A stretch of DNA of 46,184 nucleotides from Hyphomicrobiales bacterium (lineage in GTDB: Bacteria; Pseudomonadota; Gammaproteobacteria; Pseudomonadales; Pseudohongiellaceae). The notes under the pieces are model-generated. The model was given only the letters and a program-made list of their open reading frames with translations. It had not been told where the DNA came from and made no database searches. Positions within the stretch are counted from its first letter, which is position 1; every line of letters starts with the position of its first letter. The translations under genes were made by a program, and so were the position numbers. Location of the stretch: positions 1 through 46,184 of the forward strand of contig DATMFX010000168.1 in assembly GCA_035555995.1 (NCBI GenBank). Direction: 5' to 3'. Below are positions 11,454-45,477 of this stretch, piece after piece.

Positions 11454-11454
11454 A

Positions 11455-19097: not shown

Positions 19098-19105
19098 GGA
19101 ATACC

Positions 19106-24497: not shown

Positions 24498-24549
24498 ACT
24501 TTCGGTCCACGATGCTCGAATGACAGCGCGGCAGTCTACGCAGGGGCAT

Positions 24550-24566
24550 GTGAAAATTTTGTCAAA
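24550..24566 (-). promoter_or_regulatory. direct-repeat box TTGAC-N6-TTCAC upstream of the outer membrane factor gene (candidate OmpR-family regulator site)
   Basis: Read on the minus strand: TTTGACAAAATTTTCAC. The half-sites lie at 24565-24561 and 24554-24550, 11 bp start to start, 53-69 nt upstream of the ATG at 24497. It mirrors the box at 24826-24852. Confidence 0.4.
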
Positions 24567-24625
24567 GGGGTATAGACGAGAGATCAAAGAAACGATGCCG
24601 TGCGTAACTTCGATGCCAACGGCTC

Positions 24626-24743
24626 GCAGCCGCCAGGCCGGATACCCTTTCGGGGGGCATTGATGGCCAGGGATGGCCATCACTGAGCGCACATGGATGT
24701 GCTTGTAGCGTCCCCCCGGAAGGGTATCCGGCCTGGTGGCTGC
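24626..24743. repeat. structured intergenic element, copy 2
   Basis: The core 24654-24715 matches 8216-8277 at 59/62 positions. Its hairpins are at 24661-24682 and 24689-24702. The outer arms 24626-24653 and 24716-24743 are complementary over about 32 bp (two positions would be G-U) but unrelated to the copy-1 arms. Confidence 0.8.
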
Positions 24744-24825
24744 AACAGACTCGATGCGGGCCAATATTCATCCCCAACCAAGCGACTGCCACAGACTCAA
24801 TACGGGCCACCCTCCAACCCACCAC

Positions 24826-24902: not shown

Positions 24903-25580
24903 ATGCAGATATTGGTGGTCGAAGACAACCGCGACATTGCCGAGAACATCGCCGACTATCTCGAACCCCTGGGCCACACCCTCGATTTCGCCGCGGACGG
25001 CATCAGCGGCCTGCACCTCGCCATCACCCGCCGCTTCGACGTCATCGTGCTCGACGTCATGCTCCCCGGCATGGACGGCATGACGCTCTGCCGCAAGCTC
25101 CGCGAGGAAGCCGGCAACTACACCCCCGTGCTCATGCTCACCGCCCGCGACCAGCTCGACGACAAGCTGGCCGGCTTCCGCGCCGGCAGCGACGACTACC
25201 TCGTCAAACCCTTCTCGGTGAAGGAACTCGAAGTGCGCCTGCAGGCGCTGGTGAAACGCGCCACGCAGGCCACGCGCCACCGGGTGCTGCAGCTCGCCGA
25301 CCTCGAATTCAACGCCGACACCCAGCAGGCCCATCGCGGCGGCGCGCTGCTGGAACTCAATCCGATACAGCGCAAGTTGCTCGAACTGCTGCTCGGCAAC
25401 AGTCATCGTGTGGTCTCGCGCGAAGAATTGGAGCGCCACATCTGGGGCGAGATACCGCCCGACTCGGACGTGTTGCGCACGCACATCTACGGTCTGCGCA
25501 ACGCCATCGACAAACACTACGAGCCGAAACTGCTGCACACCGTGCACGGTTCGGGGTATCGGCTGTATGACCCCCGCTGA
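24903..25580 (+). CDS. OmpR/PhoB-family response regulator (CzcR/CusR-like by context)
   Basis: MQILVVEDNRDIAENI...VIVLDVMLPGMDG is a receiver domain. A winged-helix output follows (LELNPIQRKLLELL...VHGSGYRL). It is divergent from the metal RND operon. Confidence 0.92.
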   Translation: MQILVVEDNRDIAENIADYLEPLGHTLDFAADGISGLHLAITRRFDVIVLDVMLPGMDGMTLCRKLREEAGNYTPVLMLTARDQLDDKLAGFRAGSDDYLVKPFSVKELEVRLQALVKRATQATRHRVLQLADLEFNADTQQAHRGGALLELNPIQRKLLELLLGNSHRVVSREELERHIWGEIPPDSDVLRTHIYGLRNAIDKHYEPKLLHTVHGSGYRLYDPR

Positions 25581-26838
25581 ACCCTGGCGCACCACGCTCC
25601 GCCTGCGCATCATCCTGGCGCTGGTGCTGATCGTCACCACCATGAGCACACTGCTCGCCTACGGCGTGCTCGAAATCAAGAATCGGTTGGAAGCCACCGT
25701 GCTCGCCGATACCGTGCGCATCCAGCTCGTTGATCTGCAACAGCAGCGCGAGGCCGGCGATTACCATGTCGAACATTTATTTGAAAACTGGGCGTTCTAT
25801 TTCGACGAAGGCCTGGCCGACATGCCGGCAGCGCTGCGCGAACTTGGACCGGGGTCTCACCACAGCGCCTATGCCGATGGGCGCTATTACCAGGTGGAAG
25901 TGGGCGAGGACAGCGCCGGCAAGCCGCTGGTGCTCGCCTACGACATCACCACCTGGGAACGGCAGGAGCATGAAGTGTTGACCCTGCTGGTGTGGGGCGT
26001 CGTGCTGCAGTTGCTGGTGGCGATCCTGCTCGGCTGGCAGGCGTCGCGTGCGATCCTGGCGCCGGTGCGCGCCCTGACCCGGCGCCTGGCGGGCATTCAG
26101 CCAAATCAGCGCCAGGTGCGCATCGCGCAGGATTTCCAGGGCACCGAGATCGGCATCATTGCCGGCGAATTCGATCAATATCTGGCGCGGCTCGATCGTT
26201 TCGTGGAACGCGAACGGTCGTTTACCGCGGCGGCAAGCCACGAATTGCGCACGCCGCTGTCGGTGATGATTGGCGCGCTGGACATCCTCGACAATGCGCC
26301 ACTGAGCGGCCCCGCCGAGCGCGCCCGCAGCCGCATCCATCGTGCCTGCGCCGAGATGAAGGCGTTCATCGAAGCCACCCTGTACCTGTCCCGCGAAGAC
26401 GGCACCACGATCCAGGAACAGCACAGCTGCGCGCTGCGTCCGCTGATCGACGATCTGATCGACAGCCATCAGAACGCGCTGCAGGCGCGGCATATCGTGG
26501 TGGAAATCCAGGAAAGCGGTGCCGTGGTGGTGGAGCAGGCGCCGAGCCTGATGCGCATCCTGCTCGGCAACCTGCTGCGCAACGCCATCGAGCACACGCA
26601 GAACGGCTACCTCCGCATTTCGTTCACGCCCACGCTGATCATGGTGGAAGACAGCGGCAACGGCATTCCCCGTGAGGACCTGCCGCGCGTGTTCGAGCGC
26701 AGCTACACCACCAAGAAGGATGGCTACGGCCTCGGCCTGAACCTGGTCAAGCGCATCTGTGACCGCGTCGGCTGGCAGGTGGACATCCAGAGCGAAGTGG
26801 GCAAGGGCACGCAGGTGCGGCTGTTCCTGCAGCCCTGA
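25567..26838 (+). CDS. sensor histidine kinase (periplasmic sensor, HAMP, HisKA, HATPase)
   Basis: The ATG at 25567 overlaps the regulator gene end by 14 nt. Two TM helices flank a loop of about 150 aa. The H box is FTAAASHELRTPLS, with the N box LLRNAIEHT and G boxes DSGNGI / GYGLGL. Confidence 0.88.
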   Translation: MTPAEPWRTTLRLRIILALVLIVTTMSTLLAYGVLEIKNRLEATVLADTVRIQLVDLQQQREAGDYHVEHLFENWAFYFDEGLADMPAALRELGPGSHHSAYADGRYYQVEVGEDSAGKPLVLAYDITTWERQEHEVLTLLVWGVVLQLLVAILLGWQASRAILAPVRALTRRLAGIQPNQRQVRIAQDFQGTEIGIIAGEFDQYLARLDRFVERERSFTAAASHELRTPLSVMIGALDILDNAPLSGPAERARSRIHRACAEMKAFIEATLYLSREDGTTIQEQHSCALRPLIDDLIDSHQNALQARHIVVEIQESGAVVVEQAPSLMRILLGNLLRNAIEHTQNGYLRISFTPTLIMVEDSGNGIPREDLPRVFERSYTTKKDGYGLGLNLVKRICDRVGWQVDIQSEVGKGTQVRLFLQP

Positions 26839-29795: not shown

Positions 29796-31424
29796 CTACT
29801 GGAACCTGCCGCGCCGCGCATCGCGCAGTATCTCGCGCGCCGCATTGTGCCCCGGCACGCCGGTAACGCCGCCGCCGGGATGCGCGCCGGCACCGCACAG
29901 GTACAGGCCGCGCAGCGGCAGGCGATAGGCGGCCGCCCCCAGCACCGGGCGGGTATTGAACAACTGCCCCAGCCGCAGCTGGCCGTGGAAGATGTCGCCG
30001 TCGATCAGGCCGAAGCGCTGTTCCAAATCCAGCGGGGAGAGTACCTGGCTGCCGACGATGCTGGCGCTGAAATTGGGCGCGTGCCGGTTTACCGTGTCGA
30101 TCACCCGCGCGGCGAACGCCGCTTTTTCCGCCGGATCGTTCCAGTGCCTTGGCGCCGGCAGCGTGGGCGCCACATGCTGCACGAACAGGCTCGCCACGTG
30201 CTGCCCGGCCGGCGCCAGCGTGGGATCGAGCGTGGACGGCAGGAGCATTTCCACGATCGGTTCGTCCGACCAGCCATGCAGCGCCGCGGTGTGATAGGCG
30301 CGATCGAGGTAGTCCAACGTGGGGCCGATGACGATGCCGGCGCCATGGTGCGCCTGCGGCGCGGTGCCGGGGCGGCAGCGAAAATCCGGCAATTCGCGCA
30401 GGGCCACGTTCATGCGGAAGGTGCCCGACCCCGATTGGATGGCGCAAAAACGCTGGTGGGTGTCCTGTGGCACCGCGCCCGGCTCGATCAGGTCGCGGAA
30501 CAGCAGTTTGGGCGGCAGCGCCACCGCCACGCGCAGCGCCAACACGGTTTCGCCATCGGCAAGCGCCACGCCGCGCACCCGGCCATTGTCCGTGAGCACC
30601 CGCGCCACCGGCGCATTCAGCCGCAGCGTGACGCCCGCCGCCTGCGCCGCGCGGCTCATCGCCTGCGTGATGGCGCCCATGCCGCCAAGCGCATGGCCCC
30701 ACACACCCGGCTTGCCGTTCACCTCGCCGAAACAATGATGCAGCAGCACGTAGGCGGTGCCGGGCGTGTATGGAGAGGCAAACGTGCCCACCACGCCGTC
30801 GAAGGCAAACGCCGCCCGCACTACCTCGTGTTCGAACCAGCGCGCCAGGAATTCGGCGGCGCTGCCGGTGAAAAGGTCGATCAACACCTGCTGCTGGGCG
30901 CGGCTGCAGCCAAGCAGGCGCCGCGCCAGACGGCACCAGGTCAAGAGATCGCCAGGGGCCAGCGAATTGGGCGGTGTCATCAGCACCAGTTGGCGCAACA
31001 GCGCCGCCGCCTGTTCCAGCGTGGCTTCATACGCAGGCAACTGCTCGGCATCGTGGCGGGAAAACGCCGCGATCGCCGCCTGACGCGCCGCCATGCCGTA
31101 GGGAAACAGCAGTCCGCGTTCGGCGTCCACCGGCCAGAAATTCGCCACCGGGCGCTCGACGATGCGCAGCCCGTGCGCCGCCAGGTCGAGATCGGCAATC
31201 ACCTTGGGGTTGAGCAGGCTCACCGTGTAGGAAGCCACGGAGTTGCGGAAACCGGGGTGGAATTCCTCGGTGAGCGCCGCGCCGCCCGGCACCGCGTTCT
31301 TTTCCAGCACCACCACCGACAGCCCGGCGCGGGCGAGATAGGCGGCGCACACCAGCCCGTTGTGGCCGGCACCCAGGATGGCAACGTCGTAGTGGGGAGT
31401 GTGAGCAGAGCGCGGAGCGGACAT
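29796..31424 (-). CDS. FAD/NAD(P)-dependent oxidoreductase, phytoene desaturase (CrtI)-like family
   Basis: From the ATG at 31424: HYDVAILGAGHNGLVCAAYLARAGLSVVVLEKN is a Rossmann dinucleotide fold. The length (542 aa) and the C-terminal GAGAHPGGGVTGVPG are typical of COG1233-type enzymes. Confidence 0.78.
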   Translation of the reverse strand: MSAPRSAHTPHYDVAILGAGHNGLVCAAYLARAGLSVVVLEKNAVPGGAALTEEFHPGFRNSVASYTVSLLNPKVIADLDLAAHGLRIVERPVANFWPVDAERGLLFPYGMAARQAAIAAFSRHDAEQLPAYEATLEQAAALLRQLVLMTPPNSLAPGDLLTWCRLARRLLGCSRAQQQVLIDLFTGSAAEFLARWFEHEVVRAAFAFDGVVGTFASPYTPGTAYVLLHHCFGEVNGKPGVWGHALGGMGAITQAMSRAAQAAGVTLRLNAPVARVLTDNGRVRGVALADGETVLALRVAVALPPKLLFRDLIEPGAVPQDTHQRFCAIQSGSGTFRMNVALRELPDFRCRPGTAPQAHHGAGIVIGPTLDYLDRAYHTAALHGWSDEPIVEMLLPSTLDPTLAPAGQHVASLFVQHVAPTLPAPRHWNDPAEKAAFAARVIDTVNRHAPNFSASIVGSQVLSPLDLEQRFGLIDGDIFHGQLRLGQLFNTRPVLGAAAYRLPLRGLYLCGAGAHPGGGVTGVPGHNAAREILRDARRGRFQ

Positions 31425-31473
31425 GCGGGATGCTTCATGCAAGTGGACGGCGAAAGAGGATAGCATGCAGGCC

Positions 31474-31487
31474 TGCGCGTACGCGCA
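31474..31487. promoter_or_regulatory. perfect 14-bp palindrome TGCGCGTACGCGCA in a divergent promoter region
   Basis: Read directly. It lies between the oxidoreductase start (31424) and the corA start (31569). Function unknown. Confidence 0.25.
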
Positions 31488-31568
31488 AGCCGCGCCGGGC
31501 AAAAACAGGCCAGGAAAAAACCAGCATCAGGCAAAACAGGCCAACCAGGAACGGGAAAGGAACCAAGC

Positions 31569-32608: not shown

Positions 32609-34852
32609 ATGCCTGCCAAGAACGTCATTCTCGAGCTTTCTCTCCTGCAAAAAGAGGTGGGCGAGCTGGCGTCGCCCGCCGAACAGGTGCGCAGGATCGT
32701 GGATTCCATTTCCGCCATCGTGGGCACCGACGTCTGCTCGCTGTACCTGCAGGATCAGCACCAGGACCTGGTGCTGATGGCCAGCCACGGGCTGGCGCAC
32801 AGCGCGCAGGTGGTCATTCCTGCCGGCCGCGGGCTGGTGGGGCTGGTGGTCAAGAGCCGCCACACCATCAACATCCCCCGCGCCAGCGATCACCCCGCCT
32901 ACTACTACGTCGAAGCCACGGCGGAGGAACGCTTCCAGAGTTTCTGCGGCATTCCGCTGGTGCACTACGGCAAGATCATCGGCGTGCTGGTGGTGCAAAG
33001 CCGCACCGCGGAGGCGTTGTCGCCCGAAAGCGAGGGCTTTCTGGTAACCCTTTCCTCGCAGCTGGCGCATCTGGTGGCCGACATGCCGCTCACGCTGCAC
33101 GGGCCGCACCTGAACACCTACGTGCGCGGCGTGAAGGGCAGTTCCGGCATCGGCATCGGCCAGGCGGTATTGTGCGATCACGGCGATCTGCTCGGCGTGC
33201 CGGACGAACCCTGCCCCGACGTCGAGATGGCCGTCGCCGAGTGGCATGCGCTGCGCCAGCGCGTGCAGCGGGACATCCAGCAGGAACAACAGCTGCTGGG
33301 CACGCTGCTCAACGACAACGTCTCCAGCATCTTCAACACCTACACCGCGCTGCTCAACGACCAGGCGCTGGTGGGCAGGGTGGAGCTGGAAATCCGCACC
33401 GGCAACTGGCTGCCCGGCGCGCTGCGCAAGAGCATCCAGCATTTCGCCGCACTGTTCCTCGCCATGGAGGACCCCTACCTGAGGGCGCGCCACGAAGACA
33501 TCTACCACCTCGGCAACAAGCTGCTCGCCTCGCTGCAGGGCAGCGCCGGCCTGGCGGAACGGGTGGAGCAGATCGACCAGGTGGTGCTGGTGGGCGACGA
33601 AGTCAGCATTTCCGACATCGCCGCCGTGCCGGGGGAAAAGCTGGTGGGCGTGATCTGCTTCGGCGGCTCCACGCTGTCGCACACGGCGGTGCTTGCCAAC
33701 GCGCTTGGCGTGCCGGCGGTGATGGGCGTGGGCGTGCTCAAGAACCTGCGCAACCGCGAACGCTTCATCGTGGACGGCAACAGCGGCCAGATCGTGCGCT
33801 ACCCCAACGACATGCTGTGCGCCGAATTCCAGCGCCTCATCGATGAAGAGCAACAGCTGGCCAACAAGCTGTCGGCGCTGCGCGACCTGCCCGCCCTTAC
33901 CCCCGACGGCTTCGAAATACGCCTGTTCACCAACTCGGGCCTGTTGGCTGACCTGTCGCCGGGGCTGCGCCACGGCGCGCAGGGCATCGGCCTGTACCGC
34001 ACCGAAATCCCCTTCATGGTGCGCGACAGCTTTCCCTCGGAGCAGGAGCAGATCGAGGTGTACAGGCAGGTGTTCAATGTCTACACCGGCAAGCCGGTGT
34101 ACATGCGCACGCTGGACGTAGGCGGCGACAAGCAGCTGCCCTATTTCCCGATTGCCGACGAAGCCAACCCTGCGCTTGGCTGGCGCGGCATCCGTTTTAC
34201 GCTCGACAATATTCAGCTATTGATGACACAGGTGCGCGCCATGCTGAGCGCGGCGGGCAGCGAGGGCGACCTGCACATCCTGCTGCCGATGATCAGCGGC
34301 GCCGAGGAACTGAACACCTTCAATGAACTGCTCGACGAAGCGCTCAAGCAGCTGACGCTGGAAGGCGTGCCGGTACGCCGTCCGCGCACCGGCGTGATGG
34401 TGGAAGTGCCCGCGGCGATCTCGCAGCTGCACTTTTGGCGTTCGCGCATCGATTTCGTGTCGATCGGCTCCAACGACCTCAGCCAGTATCTGCTGGCGCT
34501 GGACCGCAACAACGCGCGCGTGGCCAACCGCTACGACCACATCCACCCGGCGGTGATCCAGGAACTGAACCGCGTGGTCGGCATCGCCCGCCAGCATGAC
34601 CTGCCCCTGAGCCTGTGCGGCGAAATGGCCTCCGATCCGCTGGCGGTGATCCTGCTGGTGGGCATGGGCATCACCACGCTCAGCATGAGCGCCACCAAGC
34701 TGCCGCGCATCAAGTACCTGATCCGCGCCCTGCCCCGCCACAAGGCGGAAAGCGTGCTGCAGCAATGCCTGCAGCTCGACAACGTGCAGGACATCCGCGC
34801 GCTGCTGCACAGCACGCTGTTGTCGTTGCATCTGGGTGAATTGGTCAAATAA
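32609..34852 (+). CDS. ptsP: phosphoenolpyruvate-protein phosphotransferase EI-Ntr (GAF domain plus PTS enzyme I)
   Basis: 747 aa with an N-terminal GAF domain (VCSLYLQD...FCGIPLVHYGKIIGVLVVQS). EI motifs are present: GGSTLSHTAVLANALGVPAV (phospho-His loop), GIGLYRTEIPF and FVSIGSNDLSQY. Confidence 0.92.
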   Translation: MPAKNVILELSLLQKEVGELASPAEQVRRIVDSISAIVGTDVCSLYLQDQHQDLVLMASHGLAHSAQVVIPAGRGLVGLVVKSRHTINIPRASDHPAYYYVEATAEERFQSFCGIPLVHYGKIIGVLVVQSRTAEALSPESEGFLVTLSSQLAHLVADMPLTLHGPHLNTYVRGVKGSSGIGIGQAVLCDHGDLLGVPDEPCPDVEMAVAEWHALRQRVQRDIQQEQQLLGTLLNDNVSSIFNTYTALLNDQALVGRVELEIRTGNWLPGALRKSIQHFAALFLAMEDPYLRARHEDIYHLGNKLLASLQGSAGLAERVEQIDQVVLVGDEVSISDIAAVPGEKLVGVICFGGSTLSHTAVLANALGVPAVMGVGVLKNLRNRERFIVDGNSGQIVRYPNDMLCAEFQRLIDEEQQLANKLSALRDLPALTPDGFEIRLFTNSGLLADLSPGLRHGAQGIGLYRTEIPFMVRDSFPSEQEQIEVYRQVFNVYTGKPVYMRTLDVGGDKQLPYFPIADEANPALGWRGIRFTLDNIQLLMTQVRAMLSAAGSEGDLHILLPMISGAEELNTFNELLDEALKQLTLEGVPVRRPRTGVMVEVPAAISQLHFWRSRIDFVSIGSNDLSQYLLALDRNNARVANRYDHIHPAVIQELNRVVGIARQHDLPLSLCGEMASDPLAVILLVGMGITTLSMSATKLPRIKYLIRALPRHKAESVLQQCLQLDNVQDIRALLHSTLLSLHLGELVK

Positions 34853-34870: not shown

Positions 34871-35515
34871 CTACATGCGGATGATGCCGTGCGCCAGCGC
34901 CAGACGGATCAGTTCGGCGGAACTGGTGATGTTCAGCTTTTCCTTGATCTGCGTTTGGTAGTTGGCCACGGTCTTGATGCTGAGCGACAGGTCCTGCGCG
35001 ATTTCCTGCGCGTTCATGCCTTCGGCGAACTTGCAGAATATCTGGAATTCGCGCCGCGACAGCGCCCGCAGCGGCGTACCTGTGTCGAAGTTCTGGCGCA
35101 TGGTCAGCTGTTCGGCGAGCTTGGGGTCGATGTAGCTGTCGCCGCCGGCCACCACCTTCACCGCGTCGGTAAGCACCTTGGCGGCGTTGCTCTTGGTAAT
35201 GTAACCATTGGCGCCGGCGTCGAGCGCCTGTTCGACGAAGGCGATGTTCTCGTGCATGGTGAACACCAGGATGCGCATCTTGGGATCCTTGGCACGGATG
35301 CGGCGGATGGCTTCCAGGCCGCCCATGCCGGCCATCGACAGGTCCATGACGATCACGTCCGGGGCAATCTTGCCGATCTGCTGGTTGATCGCCTCGCCGC
35401 TGTCGAGCTCGGCGATCACTTCGATCTGCCCGCTGCTTTCCAGCAGCAGCCGGAAGCCGGTGCGCACCACCGCGTGGTCGTCCACCAGCACCACCTTGAG
35501 CGGATTACTTATCAT
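34871..35515 (-). CDS. NarL/LuxR-family response regulator
   Basis: LKVVLVDDHAVVRTG...DVIVMDLSMAGMGG is a receiver domain. A GerE-type HTH follows (LSRREFQIFCKFAEGMNAQEIAQDLSLSIKTVANYQTQIKEKL). It overlaps the kinase gene end by 11 nt. Confidence 0.9.
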   Translation of the reverse strand: MISNPLKVVLVDDHAVVRTGFRLLLESSGQIEVIAELDSGEAINQQIGKIAPDVIVMDLSMAGMGGLEAIRRIRAKDPKMRILVFTMHENIAFVEQALDAGANGYITKSNAAKVLTDAVKVVAGGDSYIDPKLAEQLTMRQNFDTGTPLRALSRREFQIFCKFAEGMNAQEIAQDLSLSIKTVANYQTQIKEKLNITSSAELIRLALAHGIIRM

Positions 35516-36470
35516 CCCGGCGCCTCCTCAGCTGGAATTTGCGCGGCACCCCTACCTGAATGGTCGTTCCCTTTCCTTCGTTGGAACTGATCTGCAGCGT
35601 GCCGCGCAGCAGCAGCACCCGGTCGCGCAACCCGCTCATCCCCATGCCGGTGCGCACCCGCTGGGGCGTGAAGCCCACGCCGTCGTCGGCGATGGTCAAG
35701 GTAACCACTTCCTGGCCGCTGAGCGTAATCGTCACCTGTTCCGCCTGGGCGTGCTTGGCCACGTTGGTGAGCGTTTCCTGCACGATGCGGTACAGGTTGA
35801 TCTGCTGCGGTTCCGCCAGGTCGGAAAAATCGCCGTCCACCTTCAGCCGGCAGAACGTATCTTCGTGGAAGATGTTCCAGTCGTCCACCATCTGCTGCAG
35901 AGCAAGCACCAGGCCCAGTTCGTCCAGCACCTGCGGGCGCAGCTCGGCCATCATATCGCGCACGCTGGAATAGGCGGTATCGGAGATGCGTTCGATGCTC
36001 AGCGCGCTTTCCGCCACCGCCGGATCGCTTTTGTCGGTGCGCATGGCAATCGACACCGCGGTGGCCTTGATGGCGCTCACCGCCTGCCCGAGGCTGTCGT
36101 GCAGTTCCTGCGCCAGGCGCCGGCGGTCCTGTTCCTGGATGGTCAGCGCCTGCTGCGCCAGGCGTTCGTTTTCGGAGCGGCTGGCACCGAGCACGGCGGC
36201 CAGCTCGTTGATGCGCTCGGCCACCTCGCGCAGCTCCGGCAGCGTCATGTCCGGCACCCGGCGGCCGTAGTCGCCGCGCACCATCTCCGCCAGGCTGTCG
36301 GCCATCAGTGCCAGCGGGCGTAGCCAGTAGCCCAGCGCCAGATAGACCACCACGCTGAACAACAACAGCAAAAACAGACTGCTCACCAGTTCGGTACGGG
36401 TGAGCAATAGCACGGCGCCGACCAGGTACATCAGCAGCACCAGCCCGGTCAGCCGCAGGCGCAGGCTCAC
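35505..36470 (-). CDS. HisKA_3-type sensor kinase with two closely spaced TM helices (no periplasmic domain) and a HAMP linker
   Basis: I chose the GTG at 36470 because it overlaps the upstream gene's TGA (GTGA) and immediately precedes TM1 (VSLRLRLTGLVLLMYLVGAVLLL-TRTE-LVSSLFLLLLFSVVVYLALGYW). The H box is LAQELHDSLGQ. HATPase is present (TIADDGVGF, GMGMSGLRDR). The start is uncertain. Confidence 0.8.
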   Translation of the reverse strand: MSLRLRLTGLVLLMYLVGAVLLLTRTELVSSLFLLLLFSVVVYLALGYWLRPLALMADSLAEMVRGDYGRRVPDMTLPELREVAERINELAAVLGASRSENERLAQQALTIQEQDRRRLAQELHDSLGQAVSAIKATAVSIAMRTDKSDPAVAESALSIERISDTAYSSVRDMMAELRPQVLDELGLVLALQQMVDDWNIFHEDTFCRLKVDGDFSDLAEPQQINLYRIVQETLTNVAKHAQAEQVTITLSGQEVVTLTIADDGVGFTPQRVRTGMGMSGLRDRVLLLRGTLQISSNEGKGTTIQVGVPRKFQLRRRRDDK

Positions 36471-37354
36471 AAACGGGCCCGCTCCACGATGCCCATGATC
36501 CGATACAACAGCTGCGCCGCCGCGTGATCGTAGGCCGGCTGCTGCGGCTGCGGGCAGAATTCGGTGAAATCCAGGCCGATGATATCGGCCTGCTGCGCGA
36601 TGGACTCGATGATGGACAGCACCTGCCACCAGCCCAGCCCGCCGGGAACACCGGTCGTGGAAGGAAACACCGACGGGTCGAAACCGTCGATGTCGAGGCT
36701 CAGGTACACTTTTTCCGGAAACTCGCTCGGCAGCTCCACCTTGGTGATGTTGCGCGCCACCAGGAAATCGGCATCGTAGTATTTGACGCCATACACGCGG
36801 CGCGCGTCGGATTCCTCCTTGGACAGGCTGCGCACGCCAAGCTGGAACAGGGGCACGTCTTCGTCGACGATGCGCTTCATCACGCAGGCTTCGCTCCAGG
36901 CGTCGCCGTTGTCGTCGTCGCGCAAATCGGCCTGCGCGTCGATCTGGATCACGCCGAAATCCTCGACGCCGGCATCGAGCAGCCCTTTCACCATGGCATA
37001 GCTGATGGTGCCGTCGCCGCCGAGGCCGATCGGAAATTTCTCGTCCTTGACCACCGTGGCCACCACCGTGCTGATTTTCTCCAGCACTTTCTCGGTATTG
37101 CCCTTGCAGTCGATGGCGCCGTGGGTGTGGATGCCGTGGCGGGACGGATTGCTGCGGCCATCCCAGGTTTCGAGCTGTTGCGAGGCCGCCAGGATGGCAT
37201 CGGGCGCGCTTGCCATGGCGGAAGTCTTGTAGCGTTCACCCGTATAGGGAACGGGCAGGATGTGAAAGAAGGCATCGGCCGGCTTGGCGGGTTTTACCGC
37301 TTCACCGAGAAAGTGCTGAGCTGCTGCGGCAGCTTTTGGTTTTGCGCTGGGCAT
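36467..37354 (-). CDS. arginase/agmatinase-fold protein with non-canonical active-site residues
   Basis: 295 aa and collinear with ureohydrolases. GLGGDGTISYAMVKG aligns with GGDHS, IQIDAQAD with DAHxD, WSEACVMKR with SHA..RR, and VYLSLDIDGFDP with SxDxDxxDP. It lies in an operon with speA and carboxy(nor)spermidine enzymes. Confidence 0.8.
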   Translation of the reverse strand: MPSAKPKAAAAAQHFLGEAVKPAKPADAFFHILPVPYTGERYKTSAMASAPDAILAASQQLETWDGRSNPSRHGIHTHGAIDCKGNTEKVLEKISTVVATVVKDEKFPIGLGGDGTISYAMVKGLLDAGVEDFGVIQIDAQADLRDDDNGDAWSEACVMKRIVDEDVPLFQLGVRSLSKEESDARRVYGVKYYDADFLVARNITKVELPSEFPEKVYLSLDIDGFDPSVFPSTTGVPGGLGWWQVLSIIESIAQQADIIGLDFTEFCPQPQQPAYDHAAAQLLYRIMGIVERARL

Positions 37355-37444
37355 TAACGGGATTTCCTCTCAATCCTGGCAGCGGAGGCTGCCGGCAACT
37401 AACAAGATCCGGACGGGTATCCGCCCCGTGACGCGCCTGCGTCA

Positions 37445-38627
37445 TCAGGACAGACGATTGCGGAAGTCTTGATACCCGAATTCACGGACGATTCGCAAGT
37501 CGTTCGTCTCGGAATTCCAGATTGCGAGCGTTGGCAGGCGCACGCCGTTGAAAGTTGTGGTCTTGACCATGGTGTAATGCGCCATGTCGTCGAACAGCAA
37601 ACGCTGCCCCACCCGCAGTGGTTCGGCAAAACTGTAGTCGCCCATCACGTCGCCGGCCAGGCAGCTCAGCCCGCCCAGGCGGTAGGTATGCGGCAGCACG
37701 CCGGGTTCGGCCGAATCCCTGATGTAGGCCCGGTAGGGCATTTCCAGCGTGTCGGGCATGTGGCAGGTGGCGGAACTGTCCAGTACGGCAATCGGCGCGC
37801 CGTTTTCCATCACGTCCAGCACCTCGCTCACCAGCACGCCGCTGCGGATGGCGATGGCTTCACCCGGTTCGAGATACACCTGCACGCCGTAGTGCTCGCT
37901 GAACGCGCGGATCCTGGCGATCAGACCGTCCACATCGTACTCGGGATGGCTGATATGGTGCCCGCCGCCGAAATTGACCCACTGCATCCGCTCCAGCAGA
38001 TCGGCGCACTGCGCCTCCACCGCGTCGAGCGTGCGCGCCAGCGGCGCGAAATTCTGCTCGCACAGCGTATGGAAATGCAGCCCGGAAAAACCCGACAGAT
38101 CCTGGCCCGCCAACTGGTTCACCGGCGTGCCGAGACGCGAACCCGGCGCGCAGGGGTCGTACAGCGGTACCGCGCCTTCGGAATGCAGCGGGTTGATACG
38201 CAGCCCGAACTGCAGGTGCGGCCGCGCCTCGCGCGCCTGTGCAACGAGCGGCTGGAAGTGCCGCCACTGGCTCAGCGTGTTGAACACCACGTGATCGGCG
38301 ATGCCGAGCACGTCGCGCAGATCGCTTTCGGTGAAGGCCGCCGAATAGACATGCACCTCGCCGCCGAATTCCTCGTGCCCGAGCTGCGCTTCCCACAGCC
38401 CGCTGGCGCAGGTGCCGCGCAGGTAGCGCCGGATGAGCGGCGCCAGCGCGAACATGGAAAAGGCCTTGAGCGCCAGCAGGACTTTTGCGCCGGATTCACG
38501 CTGCACGCGCTCGAGCACGCGCAGGTTGCGCTCCACGGCCACCTCGTCCACCACGAAGCAGGGCGAGGGCACCCGGGAGGGATCGAACTGCGCGAAGGTA
38601 TCGGCCGCGAGAGGCCGCGTTTGCGCG

Positions 38628-38635
<8 letters not shown>
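37445..38635 (-). CDS. nspC: carboxynorspermidine/carboxyspermidine decarboxylase homologue
   Basis: 396 aa. It has the alanine-racemase-fold PLP decarboxylase pattern (PCFVVDE...KVLLALKAF...GLHFH...NFGGGH...CLAGD) characteristic of NspC. Its TTG start overlaps the upstream stop (TTGTCTGA). Confidence 0.85.
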
Positions 38636-39836
<1,201 letters not shown>

Positions 39837-39888
39837 GTCTGCCTACCTCGTTTGTCGATCCGGTGCGCCGTTGCCGGCGCCGGCACGA

Positions 39889-41796
39889 TCAATCCTCTTT
39901 TTCGTAGTACGTGTATCCGTTCAGGCTTTCGTTGAACAGCTTGATGATCTGCTGCCGTTCACGCGCGGTGATGCGGCCCTCGCGCACGGCGCGTTCGGCG
40001 GTGTTGCGGTGGCGCAGCTGCATTTCCTTGGGATGGAATTCCACGTAGGACAGCACGTCGCTGATGGCGTCGCCGTGCATCTCCTTGACGAAATCGAAGC
40101 CGCCGTCGCGGTTGATGCGCACGCTCACCACGTTGGTGTCGCCGAACAGGTTGTGCAGATCGCCCAGCGTTTCCTGGTAGGCGCCCACCAGGAACACGCC
40201 GAGATAGTATTCCTCGCCTTCCTTCATTGCGTGCAGCGGCAGCACCTTGACCACTTCCTCCACGCCCACGAAGCTGTCGATCTTGCCGTCGCAGTCGCAG
40301 GTAATGTCGGCGATCACCGCGCTGCGGCGCGGTTCTTCGTTCAACCGGTGCAAAGGTGCCACCGGAAACAGCTGGTCGATGGCCCAGGTGTCGGGCAGCG
40401 ACTGGAACAGGCTGAAATTGCCGTAGTAGATGTCCGCGAGCGATACCTTGAGGCCTTCCAGATCGGACGGCACGCGGGCCATGTTGTCGGTGATGTCGGC
40501 GATCTTGTGCAAGAGATCGAGGAACATGTTTTCCACCGCGCTGCGGGTGCGCAGGTCGAGCTGGCCGCGCTTGAACAGCTCGCGCGCCTCGTTGCGGTAG
40601 AAATGCGCATCGTTGTAGCACTCCTGCACGCGGCTTTCGCTGAGGTTGCCGTAAACGTCGCGCATGCGCGCAAGCAGGGGGTCTTCGTCCTCGTGCGCTT
40701 CCGGCAGGCGGGCGGGCTCGAACGTGGTGGTGTCGAGCACATTGAAGATCAGTATCGAGGAATAGGCGATGGTGGCGCGGCCCGATTCGGTAACGATCAC
40801 CGGATGCTCGATTTCGTAATCGTCGAAGGTGTTCTTGAGCGTATCGACGATGTCCTCGCAATATTCGCTCAGGGAATAGTTGCGGCTCTGCCCGAAATTC
40901 GAGCCCCAGCCGGTGTAGTCCACCGCCAGGCCGCCGCCAAGGTCGATGTATTTGAGATTGGCGCCTTCCTTCACCAGGTCGGCGTAGAAGCGGCACACTT
41001 CGACGATGCCGCTGCGGATGTCCTGAATGTTGGGAATCTGCGAGCCGAGATGGCAGTGCAGCAGCTGCAGGCAATGCAGCATGCCTTCTTCCTTGAGCAG
41101 GTCCACCAGGTCCACCAGCTGGGTGGCGGTAAGCCCGAACACGCTGCGGTCGCCGGAGGTGGAGTTCCAGTGGCCGCTGACGTTGACCGTGGTCTTGATG
41201 CGCACGCCGATGATCGGCTCGATGCCGAGCGCGCGGCTGCGTTCGAGGATGATCGGAATCTCGGTGGGGGTTTCCACCACGAACACGTAGATGAACCCCA
41301 GCTTGATGGCGGAAAGCCCAAGCTCGATGAATTCCTGGTCCTTGTAGCCGTTGCAGATGATCAGGCTGCCCGGCTCCTCCAGCGTGGACAGCGCGATCAT
41401 CATCTCGGCCTTGCTGCCCACTTCGAAGCCGTGCTTGTAGCGGGCGCCGAACGCGGCGATTTCCTCCACCACCTGCGCCTGCTGGTTGACCTTGATCGGA
41501 TAGACGCCGCGATACCCGTTCTGGTAGCCGAGCGTTTCGATGGCGTTGCCAAAGGCGGTGTTGAGGCGGTGAATCTGCGCGTCGAGAATGTTTTCAATGC
41601 GCAGCAGCACGGGCATGCGCAGATCGCGCTCGAGCATGCCGTTGATGATGTCCAGCAGCTCTACCTGGGCGTTGAGGGTGCGGGCGGTGACGTTGCCGGA
41701 CTTGGACACGCCGAAATAATCGTTACCCCAGCGTTCGAATCCGTACAGCTCGTTGGATTGCTCGATGGTCCATTCGGCCTGCTCGATGGCGTTCAA
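39889..41796 (-). CDS. speA: biosynthetic arginine decarboxylase
   Basis: The track ORF opens at TTG 41877 with no Shine-Dalgarno. The in-frame TTG at 41796 has GGAGGA (41811-41806) 9 nt upstream and gives MNAIEQAEWTIEQSNELYGFERWGNDYFGV, the usual SpeA N-terminus. The length (635 aa) and PLP-fold motifs fit. Confidence 0.9.
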   Translation of the reverse strand: MNAIEQAEWTIEQSNELYGFERWGNDYFGVSKSGNVTARTLNAQVELLDIINGMLERDLRMPVLLRIENILDAQIHRLNTAFGNAIETLGYQNGYRGVYPIKVNQQAQVVEEIAAFGARYKHGFEVGSKAEMMIALSTLEEPGSLIICNGYKDQEFIELGLSAIKLGFIYVFVVETPTEIPIILERSRALGIEPIIGVRIKTTVNVSGHWNSTSGDRSVFGLTATQLVDLVDLLKEEGMLHCLQLLHCHLGSQIPNIQDIRSGIVEVCRFYADLVKEGANLKYIDLGGGLAVDYTGWGSNFGQSRNYSLSEYCEDIVDTLKNTFDDYEIEHPVIVTESGRATIAYSSILIFNVLDTTTFEPARLPEAHEDEDPLLARMRDVYGNLSESRVQECYNDAHFYRNEARELFKRGQLDLRTRSAVENMFLDLLHKIADITDNMARVPSDLEGLKVSLADIYYGNFSLFQSLPDTWAIDQLFPVAPLHRLNEEPRRSAVIADITCDCDGKIDSFVGVEEVVKVLPLHAMKEGEEYYLGVFLVGAYQETLGDLHNLFGDTNVVSVRINRDGGFDFVKEMHGDAISDVLSYVEFHPKEMQLRHRNTAERAVREGRITARERQQIIKLFNESLNGYTYYEKED

Positions 41797-41961
41797 TGCT
41801 CGATGTCCTCCGCGATCAAACGTGGAATCAAAGAATACTTGCGCGGGGAAGCCGGGCGCAAATACCCCCCAGTTCAAGGAGGCGCGATTGTACCGACTTC
41901 GGTCCTCAAATCTACTGAATTTGTATGAAAATCGAGTAAGGAAAGGCTTGGGTGGGCAAGG

Positions 41962-43602
41962 CTAGCTCAGCGGTCGACCGCGCGTTTCCGGAATCAGGAA
42001 CAGCAGCACCGCCACACCCAGCACCGTGGCCACCAGCGGATACCACAGTCCGAAATAAGGATTGCCGTTGGCCGCGGCCATGGCGAAGGCGATGGCGGGC
42101 AGAAAGCCGCCGAACCAGCCCGAGCCGATGTGAAACGGCAGCGACAGGCCGGTATAGCGGATGCGGGTGGGAATCAACTCGAACGCCATCAGCGGCCCAA
42201 GCGCGTACACCATGGTGGCGGGCAGCACCAACAGCAGCAACAGCACCGTGACCAGCAGCAGGTTGGCCCGGGCCGGATCGGGCGCAAGCACGTAACCTTC
42301 CTTGGTCAGGAGCGCGCTCAGCCGCTCCTGGAAATCGCGCTGCGCCACGGCCAGCCCCACCGGCCCGAGCGCGCGCCCGTCCACGCTCTGGATCGTGGAC
42401 GTGCCCACCTGCACCACGGCCAGGGTGCCGGGCGAGCCCTCGGCATTGCGGTAGCTGACGCCCATGAGGGTCAGCGCGCTCTTGGCGATGTCGCAGGAGC
42501 TGGCGAACGCGGCCTGCTCCACCGGATCGAACTGCCAGGAACATTCCTGCGAATCGCTGGTGACCAGCACCGGCGCCGTGATCGAGGCGGTGGCAAGCGC
42601 CGGGTTGACCGCATGGCCAAGCCCCTGGAACACCGGCACCATCAGGATCATCGACAGTGCCGCGCCGGTCAGCAGCAGCGGTTTGCGCCCGACACTGTCC
42701 GACCACCAGCTCCACAGCATGTAGAACGGCAGGCTGATCAGCGTCACCACCAGCATGATGAAGGTCATGGTGGCCTGCGGCAGCTGCAGGATGCGGATCA
42801 GGAAGAATTGCGCGTAGAACACCGCGGTGTAGAAAATCACGCCCTGCGGCACCATCAAGCCCAGCAGGATCACCAGCATCAGCCTGAGATTGCGCCAATC
42901 GCCGAAAATCTCGCCCACCGGCCGCCGCGCCGTGCGCTGCATGGCATCCATCCGGCGGAATGCCGGGGTTTCCTCCAGATGCAGCCGGTAACGCAGCGAC
43001 ACCGCCATCAGCACGATGGAAAACAGGAACGGCAGGCGCCAGCCCCACTGATCGAACGCCGCTTCGCCCAGGCTCCTGCGCACCAGGTACACCACCAGAA
43101 ACGACAGGAACAGGCCGGCGCCGCCCGCCACCTGCAGCCAGCCACAATACAGCCCGCGCTGCCCGGCGGGCGCATGTTCGCCGGCATAGACCACCGCGCC
43201 ACCGTATTCGCCACCGAATGCCAGCCCCTGCAGCAATCGCAGGGCGATCAGCAACGCCGGCGCCAGCAAGCCCACCGATTCATAGGACGGCAACAGGCCA
43301 ATGCTGAACGTGGCCAACCCCATCAGCGTGATCGTCATCAAAAAGGCGCGCTTGCGCCCCTTGCGGTCGCCAAGCGACCCGAACACCAGCGCGCCGAGCG
43401 GGCGCACCAGATAGCCGGCGGCAAAGGTCAGCAGGGTAAAGACGAACGCGGCCGTTTCATTGAGCGCCGAGAAGAAATGCCGGGAAAACAGTGGCGCCAA
43501 CGATCCATAAAGGATGAAGTTATAGGCTTCGAACGTCGTGCCCATCGCGGTGGTGAACACGATACGATCCAGCCTGTGTGCTGATTCGGGCGTGGCATTC
43601 AT
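41962..43602 (-). CDS. MFS transporter, metabolite:H+ symporter-like, with a ~118-aa loop inserted between TM9 and TM10
   Basis: From the ATG at 43602 (546 aa). GSLGDRKGRKRAF (the TM2-3 motif) and SDSVGRKP (the TM8-9 motif) are present. I counted 12 hydrophobic segments by eye, with a hydrophilic Cys-containing segment at residues 329-446. Confidence 0.85.
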   Translation of the reverse strand: MNATPESAHRLDRIVFTTAMGTTFEAYNFILYGSLAPLFSRHFFSALNETAAFVFTLLTFAAGYLVRPLGALVFGSLGDRKGRKRAFLMTITLMGLATFSIGLLPSYESVGLLAPALLIALRLLQGLAFGGEYGGAVVYAGEHAPAGQRGLYCGWLQVAGGAGLFLSFLVVYLVRRSLGEAAFDQWGWRLPFLFSIVLMAVSLRYRLHLEETPAFRRMDAMQRTARRPVGEIFGDWRNLRLMLVILLGLMVPQGVIFYTAVFYAQFFLIRILQLPQATMTFIMLVVTLISLPFYMLWSWWSDSVGRKPLLLTGAALSMILMVPVFQGLGHAVNPALATASITAPVLVTSDSQECSWQFDPVEQAAFASSCDIAKSALTLMGVSYRNAEGSPGTLAVVQVGTSTIQSVDGRALGPVGLAVAQRDFQERLSALLTKEGYVLAPDPARANLLLVTVLLLLLVLPATMVYALGPLMAFELIPTRIRYTGLSLPFHIGSGWFGGFLPAIAFAMAAANGNPYFGLWYPLVATVLGVAVLLFLIPETRGRPLS

Positions 43603-43763
43603 AGGGGAAATCGGCCGGCCAGGCCGGTGGCGTCCGGCCTTGATTTTTGGCCGATATGCGTAAAAGGGCACCATTGTGCCAGCCAAATAGGGAAAAAGTG
43701 TTGAAGGTACCCGCAGCCTGATAGGCTAGGGCCTCCCAATATTCAGGCAAGGAGGAATTTCCC

Positions 43764-44217: not shown

Positions 44218-45477
44218 CTATCTGCCGAACAGGCGGTCGAGGCTGGCGGCGATGCCGAACATCACGTTCTGCTGGTTGAAACTGATCCGGCCGGCGGTTT
44301 CGCGGCGGTCGTGTCCAAACGCCACGAACATGTCCACCCAGGTGGAATAGGCGTAGTCGAGGCGCAGCTTGATCCCCTGCCCCTCGTTTGCGCGCTGGGT
44401 GCTGGCGTTGACGTTGCGCGAGAAGGATCCTGCCAATGTGGTTTTCAGCTGGCTCGCCCAGCGTTGTTCCCAGTTGTAGCGGTAGCTGCTGATGCTGTCC
44501 TGGCGGTCGAGGCCGAAGCGCTCGCGCAAGCTGCGGTCGGCCGCGAACGTCAGCGTGGCGCTTTGCAGCGGTTGCCAGCGCAGGTTGGTTTCCCAGGCGG
44601 TGGTGTCGGCGATCGTCTGCGGCGCGCCGTTGTCCGTCTGTTTATAGCCCGACGCCAGGCGCAGCTTGCCGGTGCCGGCAATCGTCGGCTCCCAGGAAGC
44701 GCCCACGTAGGTGAAGACTTCGCGGCGGTCGATGGCGGTGCCCGCATTGCCGTCCGTGCTCTCCCCCAGATAATCGATGTCGCGCGCGCGGTACTGCAGT
44801 TGCAGATCCGCGCCCGGCAGCACGCGAAAACGGAAACTGCCGCTGACATGGTTGTCTGCCTGATCCTTGGCACCGGGACGCGGCGCGGCCGCCAGATAAT
44901 CCTTCGCGAAGGTACCGGCGCCAAGCACCAGCTGCCCACGCCGGTTCCACAGGGATTGTTCGTAATCCACATCGAACGTGGTGGTGAGAAAACGCACCGG
45001 ATCGCGCTTGGCGTCCACCAGATTGGTGGTGCCGGCGCCCTCGTGCGTGTTGAAGTTTTCCGTGCGGAACTTGAGGCTGCGCTTTGGGCCAAGCTCGAAG
45101 CGCGCCACGTTTTCCAGCTTCCAGTCGACGTAGTCCGCGGTGCCGGCCGCGGAATAGATGCCGTTCTGCACCTCCATCGTCGAGGAAAACTGCCGCCGCT
45201 CGCCCACCACGACCGCCTTGATCCGGGGCCGGAACAGCAACAGCTCCGCGCTTTCCTCCTCGCCGTTCGGCAACAGCACGCTGCCGGTGGGCGTTACCTT
45301 GGTGTTGAAGTCGGGAATCACCTCGATGGCGCCGACGTGAAACTTCTCATACTCGATGGCATGGGCAAGGGGCGGCGCCATGCCGAGCGCGATTGCCGCA
45401 CTCAGCTGCAGGGCCCGCACGCGGCCCTGGAAATTGGACAGGCCGCTTGCGCTGCGCGCGGCCTTACTCTGTTGCAT
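44218..45477 (-). CDS. putative outer-membrane beta-barrel protein (function unknown)
   Basis: It has a signal peptide ending AHA-IE. Alternating hydrophobic/polar strands rich in aromatic and Gly residues run throughout. I recognise no specific family. Confidence 0.5.
   Translation of the reverse strand: MQQSKAARSASGLSNFQGRVRALQLSAAIALGMAPPLAHAIEYEKFHVGAIEVIPDFNTKVTPTGSVLLPNGEEESAELLLFRPRIKAVVVGERRQFSSTMEVQNGIYSAAGTADYVDWKLENVARFELGPKRSLKFRTENFNTHEGAGTTNLVDAKRDPVRFLTTTFDVDYEQSLWNRRGQLVLGAGTFAKDYLAAAPRPGAKDQADNHVSGSFRFRVLPGADLQLQYRARDIDYLGESTDGNAGTAIDRREVFTYVGASWEPTIAGTGKLRLASGYKQTDNGAPQTIADTTAWETNLRWQPLQSATLTFAADRSLRERFGLDRQDSISSYRYNWEQRWASQLKTTLAGSFSRNVNASTQRANEGQGIKLRLDYAYSTWVDMFVAFGHDRRETAGRISFNQQNVMFGIAASLDRLFGR

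Follow-up and report, generated by a model that had tools for sequence, protein, structure and literature searches.

The locus studied here raises the question of how a spermidine operon completes its pathway when the gene in the place of the final ureohydrolase encodes a protein without the metal-binding and catalytic histidines of its family, and what a kinase and a regulator are doing at the end of such an operon. It lies on the minus strand of the window, by which we mean the entire 46,184-nucleotide contig DATMFX010000168.1 (C168 in our numbering) of assembly GCA_035555995.1, a metagenome bin of the family Pseudohongiellaceae that is 88% complete and comprises 490 contigs and 3.04 Mb. Six open reading frames (ORFs) run head to tail: speA, a dehydrogenase, a decarboxylase, an arginase-fold gene, a histidine kinase and a response regulator. 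Their order and families, as named in an earlier note made from the sequence, were confirmed by coordinates and by Pfam and NCBIfam profile searches. The same holds for the gaps of 52 nt between speA and the dehydrogenase gene and of 90 nt between the decarboxylase and arginase-fold genes, and for the overlaps TTGTCTGA (8 nt, dehydrogenase/decarboxylase), GTGA (arginase-fold gene/kinase) and ATGATAAGTAA (11 nt, kinase/regulator).

The account that we regard as on balance the right one is that of an agmatine-first operon whose disarmed ureohydrolase would have been kept for another role, whose pathway would be finished by AguA-like and AguB-like enzymes encoded elsewhere, and whose kinase–regulator pair would be eroding. 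The substrates of all the enzymes are predicted from sequence. The six genes are as follows.

34871..35515, minus strand: response regulator of the NarL/LuxR family, 214 amino acids (aa) (Response_reg 98.5 bits, GerE 55.3 bits)
35505..36470, minus strand: histidine kinase of the HisKA_3 type, 321 aa from the GTG in GTGA (HAMP, HisKA_3, HATPase_c)
36467..37354, minus strand: arginase-fold protein, putatively descended from the aminopropylagmatine ureohydrolase clade, with a remodeled active site, 295 aa (PF00491, 171 bits)
37445..38635, minus strand: predicted decarboxylase of carboxyaminopropylagmatine or carboxyspermidine, nspC family, 396 aa, with a TTG start within TTGTCTGA (TIGR01047)
38628..39836, minus strand: predicted dehydrogenase of the carboxyaminopropylagmatine type, saccharopine dehydrogenase family, 402 aa (Sacchrp_dh_NADP and Sacchrp_dh_C)
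39889..41796, minus strand: speA, biosynthetic arginine decarboxylase, 635 aa from TTG 41796 (NF003763, TIGR01273)

Active site and history of the arginase-fold protein

Arginases hold their two metals with six ligands in the order His, Asp, His, Asp, Asp, Asp (positions 101, 124, 126, 128, 232 and 234 in rat arginase numbering). In the window protein, set against agmatinases and arginases of solved structure, the GG(D/E)H motif reads GGDGT, the DAHxD motif reads DAQAD (within IDAQAD) and the S-H-A motif reads WSE (within WSEAC), while a one-residue deletion removes the G-T-P motif. G115 and Q141 stand at the two metal-histidine positions and E155 at that of the catalytic histidine; D139, D143, D221 and D223 are kept. 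We compared two groups of homologues, group 1 consisting of the window and its 20 closest loci (70-79% identity, one genus) and group 2 of 60 distant operon-linked homologues (49-57% identity), with the following states at each position.

First metal histidine: G in 21/21 of group 1; H in 60/60 of group 2
Second metal histidine: Q in 19/21 of group 1, H in the other two (L005 and L008); H in 60/60 of group 2
Catalytic histidine: E in 19/21 and Q in 2/21 of group 1; H in 60/60 of group 2
Four metal aspartates: kept in 21/21 of group 1
Thr-Pro of the GTP motif: Thr replaced and Pro deleted in 20/20 rows of group 1 (the broken copy L024 left out); T-P in 60/60 of group 2

Altogether 39 alignment columns separate the groups, concentrated in the active-site loops. 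Group 1 has also gained invariant residues (R41, D148, C157 and S178), and E265 is kept in 17 of its 21 copies. Against the agmatinase profile TIGR01230 (cut-off 174.3) the window protein scored 159.3 bits, below the threshold, and the canonical protein of locus L025 scored 213.3 bits, above it.

The fold itself is predicted with confidence, the AlphaFold2 model having a predicted local distance difference test (pLDDT) score of 86.8. The best Foldseek match, 3PZL (E 1e-18), was also the best PDB sequence match, and is a Thermoplasma protein that Xi et al. call an aminopropylagmatine ureohydrolase (PMC10599626). The same authors describe a glutamate and an arginine (E60 and R151 of Sll0228) as conserved only in aminopropylagmatine ureohydrolases (PMC10599626). 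In our alignment E62 is invariant and R145 lies two residues past the third metal aspartate, the equivalence of these two to E60 and R151 being drawn from motif context only. Among the 150 best family representatives, both the glutamate and the arginine were present in 129 and all nine residues were canonical in 126, while about 10 carried other, scattered degenerate patterns; four of the representatives with such patterns came from clusters of one or two members and are thus sporadic. Active-site decay, as judged from these residues, recurs in the family, and the clade described here is a well-sampled, conserved case. ESM Atlas matches of the window protein fell only in "agmatinase family" clusters. 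Taken at the level of its residues, the remodeled protein is predicted to be inactive as a ureohydrolase.

A maximum-likelihood tree was built from 80 copies with L024 left out, the bootstrap of which was not fully settled. All remodeled copies fall on one side of a single branch (support 100/100) with a length of 0.66+0.32 changes per site, compared with a median terminal branch of 0.09. The same leap is visible in pairwise identities from 16 + 52 genomes that carry both genes, L024 again excluded: at 80-85% dehydrogenase identity, the arginase-fold proteins share 71-72% of their residues within either group but 51% across the two. The pairwise ratio of nonsynonymous to synonymous substitution rates (dN/dS), which can be given only roughly, was 0.139 among remodeled copies (57/120 pairs with dS <2) and 0.135 among canonical ones, and dN relative to that of the dehydrogenase was 2.4 and 1.7, respectively. 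These comparisons indicate that the remodeling was a single burst and that the gene reads as constrained and somewhat faster-evolving, not as a pseudogene.

Two members of the genus depart from the intact state. In G178 the order is speA–dehydrogenase–decarboxylase–remnant–ptsP, and what is left, with a stop codon and further damage, corresponds to the C-terminal third of a copy that had been remodeled before; it follows that the remodeling preceded the loss and that the gene was afterward dispensed with in one lineage or more. In L024 (3520-4627, equal to contig C244 of genome G259) residues 171-230 of the arginase-fold protein are duplicated, the copy was recovered by tblastn in two pieces and the kinase starts at its end; this copy is broken or mis-assembled.

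A probable agmatine-first pathway and its terminal step

In the carboxyaminopropylagmatine (CAPA) route, agmatine and aspartate semialdehyde yield carboxyaminopropylagmatine, which is converted to aminopropylagmatine and then to spermidine and urea (Xi et al. 2023, PMC10599626). Proteobacteria are the main carriers of its genes in marine and freshwater metagenomes (PMC10599626). The earlier note had left the choice between this route and the classical one through putrescine and carboxyspermidine, and it is the dehydrogenase that makes the agmatine-first alternative the better fit. The window enzyme aligns over its full length with four solved homologues, including 8DEB from Bacteroides fragilis at 531 bits, and its N108, E110 and H232-E233 correspond in the alignment to N105, E107 and H228-E229 of 8DEB, H232 being the catalytic histidine. 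The B. fragilis enzyme strongly prefers agmatine (Ostlund et al. 2026, PMC13683441), and N105, E107 and E229 were proposed by those authors, as a docking-based hypothesis, to recognize the guanidinium group (PMC13683441). At these positions the putrescine enzymes of Agrobacterium and Brucella carry I/E/D and the diaminopropane enzyme of Vibrio carries V/V/D (PMC13683441), and mutation of E228 in the Synechocystis enzyme abolishes activity (Xi et al., PMC10599626). The window dehydrogenase has N/E/E, neither V/V/D nor I/E/D, and scored 420.9 bits against the carboxynorspermidine synthase profile NF043000, below its cut-off of 800. Both the DTANYE and the YHEEL motif were present in 69/69 dehydrogenases aligned from related loci. 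As far as sequence can tell, the enzyme thus fits better as a carboxyaminopropylagmatine dehydrogenase (CAPADH).

The decarboxylase reached 477 bits with the nspC profile TIGR01047 (cut-off 409) and 443 bits with PDB entry 9EAF, and speA was assigned at 806 bits with NF003763 (cut-off 369) and 708 bits with TIGR01273 (cut-off 624). In the remainder of the 88%-complete bin we found, provisionally, no S-adenosylmethionine decarboxylase; the only match to the spermidine-synthase family was one of 37 bits, and the only other Orn/DAP-type decarboxylase was LysA. The assertion that the operon holds exactly the four activities required by the agmatine-first route stands for the gene identities and fails at the fourth gene, where the active-site residues are gone.

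The arrangement of the biosynthetic genes is not new, and the earlier note had itself named a common, characterized gene order as something that would take away the novelty. A scan for arginase-fold relatives with one genome per species returned 80 loci labeled as Pseudomonadales-type gammaproteobacteria (Porticoccaceae, Cellvibrionaceae, Oleiphilaceae, Pseudohongiellaceae and others). The order speA–dehydrogenase–decarboxylase–arginase-fold gene occurred in 61 of them and 12 more ran off their contig; the rest had the last three genes without an adjacent speA (5), the last two genes (1) or the arginase-fold gene alone (1). With the pathway characterized in 2023 (PMC10599626), the four biosynthetic genes are a common and already known operon type. 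Six of the loci (L022, L040, L045, L050, L070 and L083) carry a typical gammaproteobacterial operon in bins labeled Klebsiella pneumoniae, Flavobacteriales, Enterobacteriaceae, Cyanobacteria or Pontiella, labels that are probably binning or labeling errors rather than signs of gene transfer.

How the pathway ends in the window's genus was approached through a survey of 121 genomes of the family. The remodeled gene was matched in the window's own genome and in 18/18 other genomes of the genus, of which 16 hold it intact at 71-79% identity (one cut by a contig end), G259 holds the broken copy and G178 the remnant. It is the sole arginase-fold gene in 6/6 genomes checked, and a strong gene of the agmatine deiminase family (AguA) is present in 19/19 genomes of the genus. 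Elsewhere in the family, the canonical arginase-fold type was seen in 15 genomes and a deiminase in 14, with both in only 2; another five genomes that hold canonical copies showed no strong deiminase. The window's genome has its AguA-like gene next to a CN-hydrolase gene on contig C340, unlinked to the operon. The AguA-like protein scored 173 bits against the agmatine deiminase equivalog (cut-off 382) and the CN-hydrolase 265 bits against that for N-carbamoylputrescine amidase (cut-off 410).

Such a pair has been anticipated. Of the species with CAPADH and the corresponding decarboxylase (CAPADC), 44% have a ureohydrolase, the rest carrying genes resembling AguA and N-carbamoylputrescine amidohydrolase (NCPAH), for which a two-step route was speculated (PMC10599626), and the same two-step finish was predicted for B. 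fragilis (Ostlund et al. 2026, PMC13683441). Scores as far below the true AguA and AguB equivalogs as those seen here fit the "AguA-like and NCPAH-like" enzymes predicted to convert aminopropylagmatine to spermidine. The terminal enzyme that the CAPA pathway calls for is thus represented in this genome by the AguA-like/CN-hydrolase pair and not by a ureohydrolase, and the last step is probably performed by that unlinked pair rather than by the arginase-fold protein.

Collectively, we propose that the operon would be transcribed from a conserved promoter upstream of speA and that SpeA would supply agmatine, which the dehydrogenase would join with aspartate semialdehyde to give carboxyaminopropylagmatine and the nspC-type decarboxylase would convert to aminopropylagmatine. 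The fourth gene would descend from the usual final ureohydrolase of the pathway, would have lost the binuclear-metal and catalytic residues and would no longer carry out this step; the guanidino group would instead be removed in two steps by the unlinked, divergent AguA-like deiminase and AguB-like amidohydrolase. This pair would have made the operon's own ureohydrolase redundant before it was remodeled. The disarmed protein is under purifying selection, presumably for another, non-essential role, for which ligand binding is a more likely candidate than catalysis. The kinase and regulator would be translated in tandem with it, having been present in the ancestor, dispensable and now eroding in the genus.

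The kinase–regulator pair, transcription and neighboring genes

The kinase contains two transmembrane helices with about 8 residues between them, followed by HAMP, an H-box with His124 and HATPase_c (HisKA_3 55 bits, HATPase_c 56 bits); H124 is invariant in the kinase alignment and the kinase core is intact. In the regulator, Asp58 was read from the sequence as the phosphoacceptor, and GAGGAGG precedes the ATG. The best NCBIfam matches were partial, UhpB for the kinase (185 bits) and UvrY/GacA for the regulator (171 bits vs a cut-off of 280), and no equivalog was reached. In its architecture, a HAMP–HisKA_3–HATPase_c kinase with a REC–GerE regulator, the pair resembles systems of the NarL/UhpA class (UhpB, NarX/NarQ, LiaS, MctS), from which it differs in reaching no equivalog cut-off and in the roughly 8 residues between the helices of its kinase.

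The junction between the arginase-fold gene and the kinase gene is spanned, with at most 1 base difference, by contigs of public DNA runs from two studies (X1, 35533-37180; X2, 36322-36558) and is therefore not a one-off assembly artifact. Besides the window, 10 of 11 other kinase-bearing loci show the GTGA stop/start overlap, among them L025, whose enzyme is canonical; the exception is L024 with its broken arginase-fold copy. Despite this conservation, the pair comes and goes. At the 21 closest places, the window included, it was present at 11, absent at 9 and not judgeable at 1 (L020), and among the distant loci only L025 has it (1/60; absent in 59/60). In L009 a frameshifted regulator fragment lies between the arginase-fold gene and ptsP, a remnant that speaks for loss rather than gain of the pair, and losses were placed at four or more points on the tree. 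In a sister genus, orthologous pairs were found in 12/16 genomes, with kinases 52-58% and regulators 61-66% identical to those of the window, the same range as within the window's genus. None of seven sister-genus loci had polyamine genes within about 8 kb of the pair; in the two that are annotated, it is flanked by a 3-hydroxyisobutyrate-dehydrogenase-like gene on one side and a TonB-dependent receptor gene on the other.

The orthologous kinases possess a periplasmic domain of about 125 aa between the transmembrane helices, which in L017 gave a weak LapD_MoxY_N match (23 bits, cut-off 25). These roughly 125 alignment columns are present in 11/13 aligned kinases and missing in the window, and about 115 are missing in L011. 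The two deletions have different end points and lie in different clades, and the nearest relatives of L011 (L007 and L010) keep the domain. The kinase evolves with a dN/dS of about 0.32. The idea that pathway and signaling pair are expressed as one unit is structurally plausible by virtue of the conserved GTGA overlap, but the pair is no fixed component of the locus, and the distribution just described suggests that it is an optional, lineage-specific and eroding appendage.

Two paralogues of the operon-linked kinase (L094 and L095) were observed elsewhere in the window's genome (G000), at C106:2164-3456 and C170:2317-3408. They are 40-41% identical to the L017 kinase; that on C106 is full length with the periplasmic domain, and that on C170 is cut by the contig end. 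Similar kinase paralogues occur in other genomes of the genus.

The features that bear on where the operon starts and stops are the following.

41887..41915, minus strand: promoter-like block 5' of speA (GTAGATTT at 41915-41908, TACAAT at 41892-41887, then CGCGCCTCC)
41962..43686, minus strand: neighboring transporter of the metabolite/H+ symporter type, major facilitator superfamily (MFS), 574 aa (Sugar_tr, MFS_1)
32609..34852, plus strand: ptsP, GAF-containing enzyme I of the nitrogen phosphotransferase system, convergent neighbor (NF008283, 652 bits, cut-off 583)

The start of speA had been set at 41811, where there is no in-frame start codon; the longest ORF reaches TTG 41877. The most likely start, by our reading, is TTG 41796, preferred because GGAGGA lies 9 nt upstream of it, because the 636-position speA profile aligns from ORF residue 32 and this start gives 635 aa, and because it falls on the 3' side of the promoter-like block, about 90 nt downstream. 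Close variants of the block GTAGATTT-N17-TACAAT-CGCGCCTCC were seen by eye 5' of speA in the window and most of 12 relatives, both with and without the two-component pair. A promoter role is suggested for it, and the operon most likely begins there. The MFS gene, which had been correctly placed directly upstream of speA on the same strand (165 nt from TTG 41796), is most likely a separate unit, because the block sits between the two genes.

A consensus promoter scan returned 1 site vs 1.9 expected, on the wrong strand, and missed the speA block, the -35 element of which is weak. A terminator scan gave 18 terminator-like sites vs 7.9 expected. A candidate in the 90-nt gap between the decarboxylase and arginase-fold genes (37426-37411) was rejected for its weak stem and poor T-tail; the gap varies from 22 to 93 nt in relatives. 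The arginase-fold gene/kinase and kinase/regulator junctions leave no room for a terminator. A search of the whole window with Rfam at gathering thresholds gave 0 matches.

In L009, L011, L012, L014 and L023, SpeA is extended at its N terminus by several tens of residues, Lys/Ala-rich and repeat-like, which read from the DNA begin MNAAKK and continue with runs of A, K, S and G; the window SpeA is without it.

The MFS protein scored 326 bits with TIGR00883, below the cut-off of 443. Matches at 58-63% identity lie upstream of speA in 4/20 closest loci, directly in L006 and at about 1.5 kb in L009, L011 and L021. We considered whether the pair might belong with this transporter and set the idea aside as too thin, an MFS gene being near the pair in only 1/8 sister-genus loci; there (L091, 5258-6868) it is 59% identical to that of the window and lies about 1.5 kb upstream of the orthologous pair. 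On the other side, the ptsP stop is 18 nt from the regulator stop, and ptsP follows the cluster in 15/20 closest loci.

Further afield, a 568-aa protein of the flavin amine-oxidase family (29796-31502, minus strand; Amino_oxidase 52 bits, DAO, NAD_binding_8) is encoded about 3 kb beyond ptsP and could be a polyamine or amine oxidase. A 419-aa ORF at 44218-45477 (minus strand), with coding-like codon bias, a signal-peptide-like start and no Pfam or NCBIfam match, may encode an outer-membrane protein. The window also holds two RND efflux systems (8379-12561 and 18792-24764, minus strand), the second of which has, besides an AcrB/CzcA-type pump, an outer-membrane factor, a membrane-fusion protein and a small DUF3240 protein. 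Close to this second system is a gene for a HisKA kinase (25408-26838), and between the two systems is one for a LytS-type His_kinase (14706-15848).

Competing explanations and significance

The same parts can be put together differently. In the classical scheme, AguA and AguB would turn agmatine into putrescine, the dehydrogenase and decarboxylase would pass through carboxyspermidine to spermidine, and the arginase-fold gene would be a leftover. In its favor, such gene sets were generally assigned to the putrescine route before 2023, and all 19 genomes examined in the genus have AguA-like and CN-hydrolase genes. Putrescine is, moreover, turned over slowly by enzymes of this dehydrogenase family (PMC13683441). 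We nevertheless hold this scheme to be unlikely: the dehydrogenase has N/E/E where the putrescine enzymes of Agrobacterium and Brucella have I/E/D (PMC13683441), its motif recurs in all 69 dehydrogenases, in genomes with AguA and without it, the scores of the AguA-like and AguB-like proteins stay below two thirds of the cut-offs for the true enzymes, and B. fragilis CAPADH barely uses carbamoylputrescine (PMC13683441). A self-contained four-enzyme CAPA operon would result if the arginase-fold protein were still the terminal ureohydrolase, or an agmatinase, with a metal site built from carboxylates and amides. The four metal aspartates in every group 1 copy and E265 in most of them would suit such a site, as would E62 and R145 if motif context identifies them correctly as the ureohydrolase-specific residues; the protein also retains the operon position of the canonical enzyme, a dN/dS as low as that of canonical copies and a confidently predicted fold. 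Set against this are the loss of both metal histidines, the catalytic histidine and the substrate threonine, the inactivity of studied arginase-family proteins without the binuclear center, such as MetCb (PMC11271267), the exact coincidence of the change with the presence of the alternative two-step route, and the discarding of the gene in the G178 lineage, and we judge a surviving terminal enzyme to be improbable.

A third possibility brings the signaling genes in. The remodeled protein could be a cytoplasmic receptor for aminopropylagmatine, agmatine or spermidine that signals to the kinase encoded by the overlapping gene, with the regulator controlling polyamine or transport genes. The overlap in nearly all kinase-bearing loci agrees with this, as do the two independent losses of the periplasmic sensor from a kinase with an intact core, the retention of the acidic pocket and of the putative contact residue for the aminopropyl end, and the gain of new invariant residues. 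Nine of the 20 assessable loci, by contrast, keep the remodeled protein without any kinase, an identical overlap occurs in L025, where the enzyme is fully canonical, and the sister-genus pairs live apart from polyamine genes; the promoter-like block is the same with and without the pair, and the kinase evolves fast. We therefore give the receptor explanation little chance. Its most specific form, in which a dead enzyme binds aminopropylagmatine or agmatine in its acidic pocket and informs the kinase, which could thus shed its periplasmic sensor twice, is likewise a long shot. If it were true, the part of the input domain in a two-component system would be played by a separate protein, a pseudoenzyme from the pathway with which the system is co-expressed.

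The agmatine-first account with a disarmed ureohydrolase, which we prefer, has points of its own weighing against it. The second metal histidine is retained in 2/21 copies (L005 and L008), and purifying selection as strong as that on canonical copies, together with the new invariant residues, may be a sign that the protein has remained an enzyme, whether with an altered metal site or with a new reaction. With dS near saturation (medians 1.1-1.7), the dN/dS values are approximate. The N/E/E motif speaks through sequence comparison and docking, as a hypothesis of its authors, and C340 is a contig of 2.8 kb in an incomplete bin, assigned to this genome by its presence in all sampled relatives. 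Co-transcription of the six genes, finally, is read from their spacing alone, and internal promoters may exist.

Comparison with known systems helps to delimit what is new. The CAPA pathway of Synechocystis sp. PCC 6803 (CAPADH Slr0049, CAPADC and the aminopropylagmatine ureohydrolase (APAUH) Sll0228; PMC10599626) has the same four enzyme types as the window and shares with it the E...H-E residues of the dehydrogenase, an nspC-type decarboxylase and an arginase fold of the 3PZL-like clade. The window genes, by contrast, form one tight operon to which a kinase and a regulator are appended, and their arginase-fold member is without the histidine ligands, the catalytic histidine and the threonine. 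The CAPA variant of B. fragilis and Streptococcus pneumoniae with an AguA-type and C-N hydrolase finish, which has been predicted only (PMC13683441; PMC10599626), resembles the window's genus in the N/E/E dehydrogenase and in the AguA-like and CN-hydrolase pair in the genome; unlike that variant, this genus keeps a disarmed ureohydrolase in the operon and has the deiminase pair unlinked.

Among arginase-fold proteins, a close parallel is MetCb of metformin hydrolase (PMC11271267), in which the fold is kept and the metal ligands are replaced, as in the window protein. MetCb partners an active paralogue, whereas the genomes checked in the window's genus have no second arginase-fold gene and the four aspartates are retained. 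A sequence search of the PDB with the window protein matched both MetCb (8RYI_C) and 4RHI. We take 4RHI and related entries to be the arginase-like protein of Trypanosoma brucei, another arginase fold with its metal ligands replaced. In the literature on the CAPA route, on arginase pseudoenzymes and on two-component systems with spermidine, covered mostly through titles and the openings of abstracts, we found neither a disarmed ureohydrolase in such an operon nor a kinase tied to such a protein. The novelty lies in the disarmed ureohydrolase and in the way its occurrence coincides exactly with that of the alternative finishing enzymes.

These observations carry a caution, namely that even a conserved overlap between the stop of a biosynthetic gene and the start of a kinase gene is no proof of a functional tie, given that this pair has other surroundings in the sister genus and is being lost here. 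They also supply a case from bacteria, present as a single copy, of an arginase-fold protein that has outlived its metal center, of which few are known. In many bacteria that have no ureohydrolase, the final step of the CAPA route is still a prediction, and in this respect the genus resembles a natural replacement experiment: an AguA-like/AguB-like pair is present in every sampled member, the catalytic center of the ureohydrolase appears to have been dismantled in one burst, and one member has discarded the gene.

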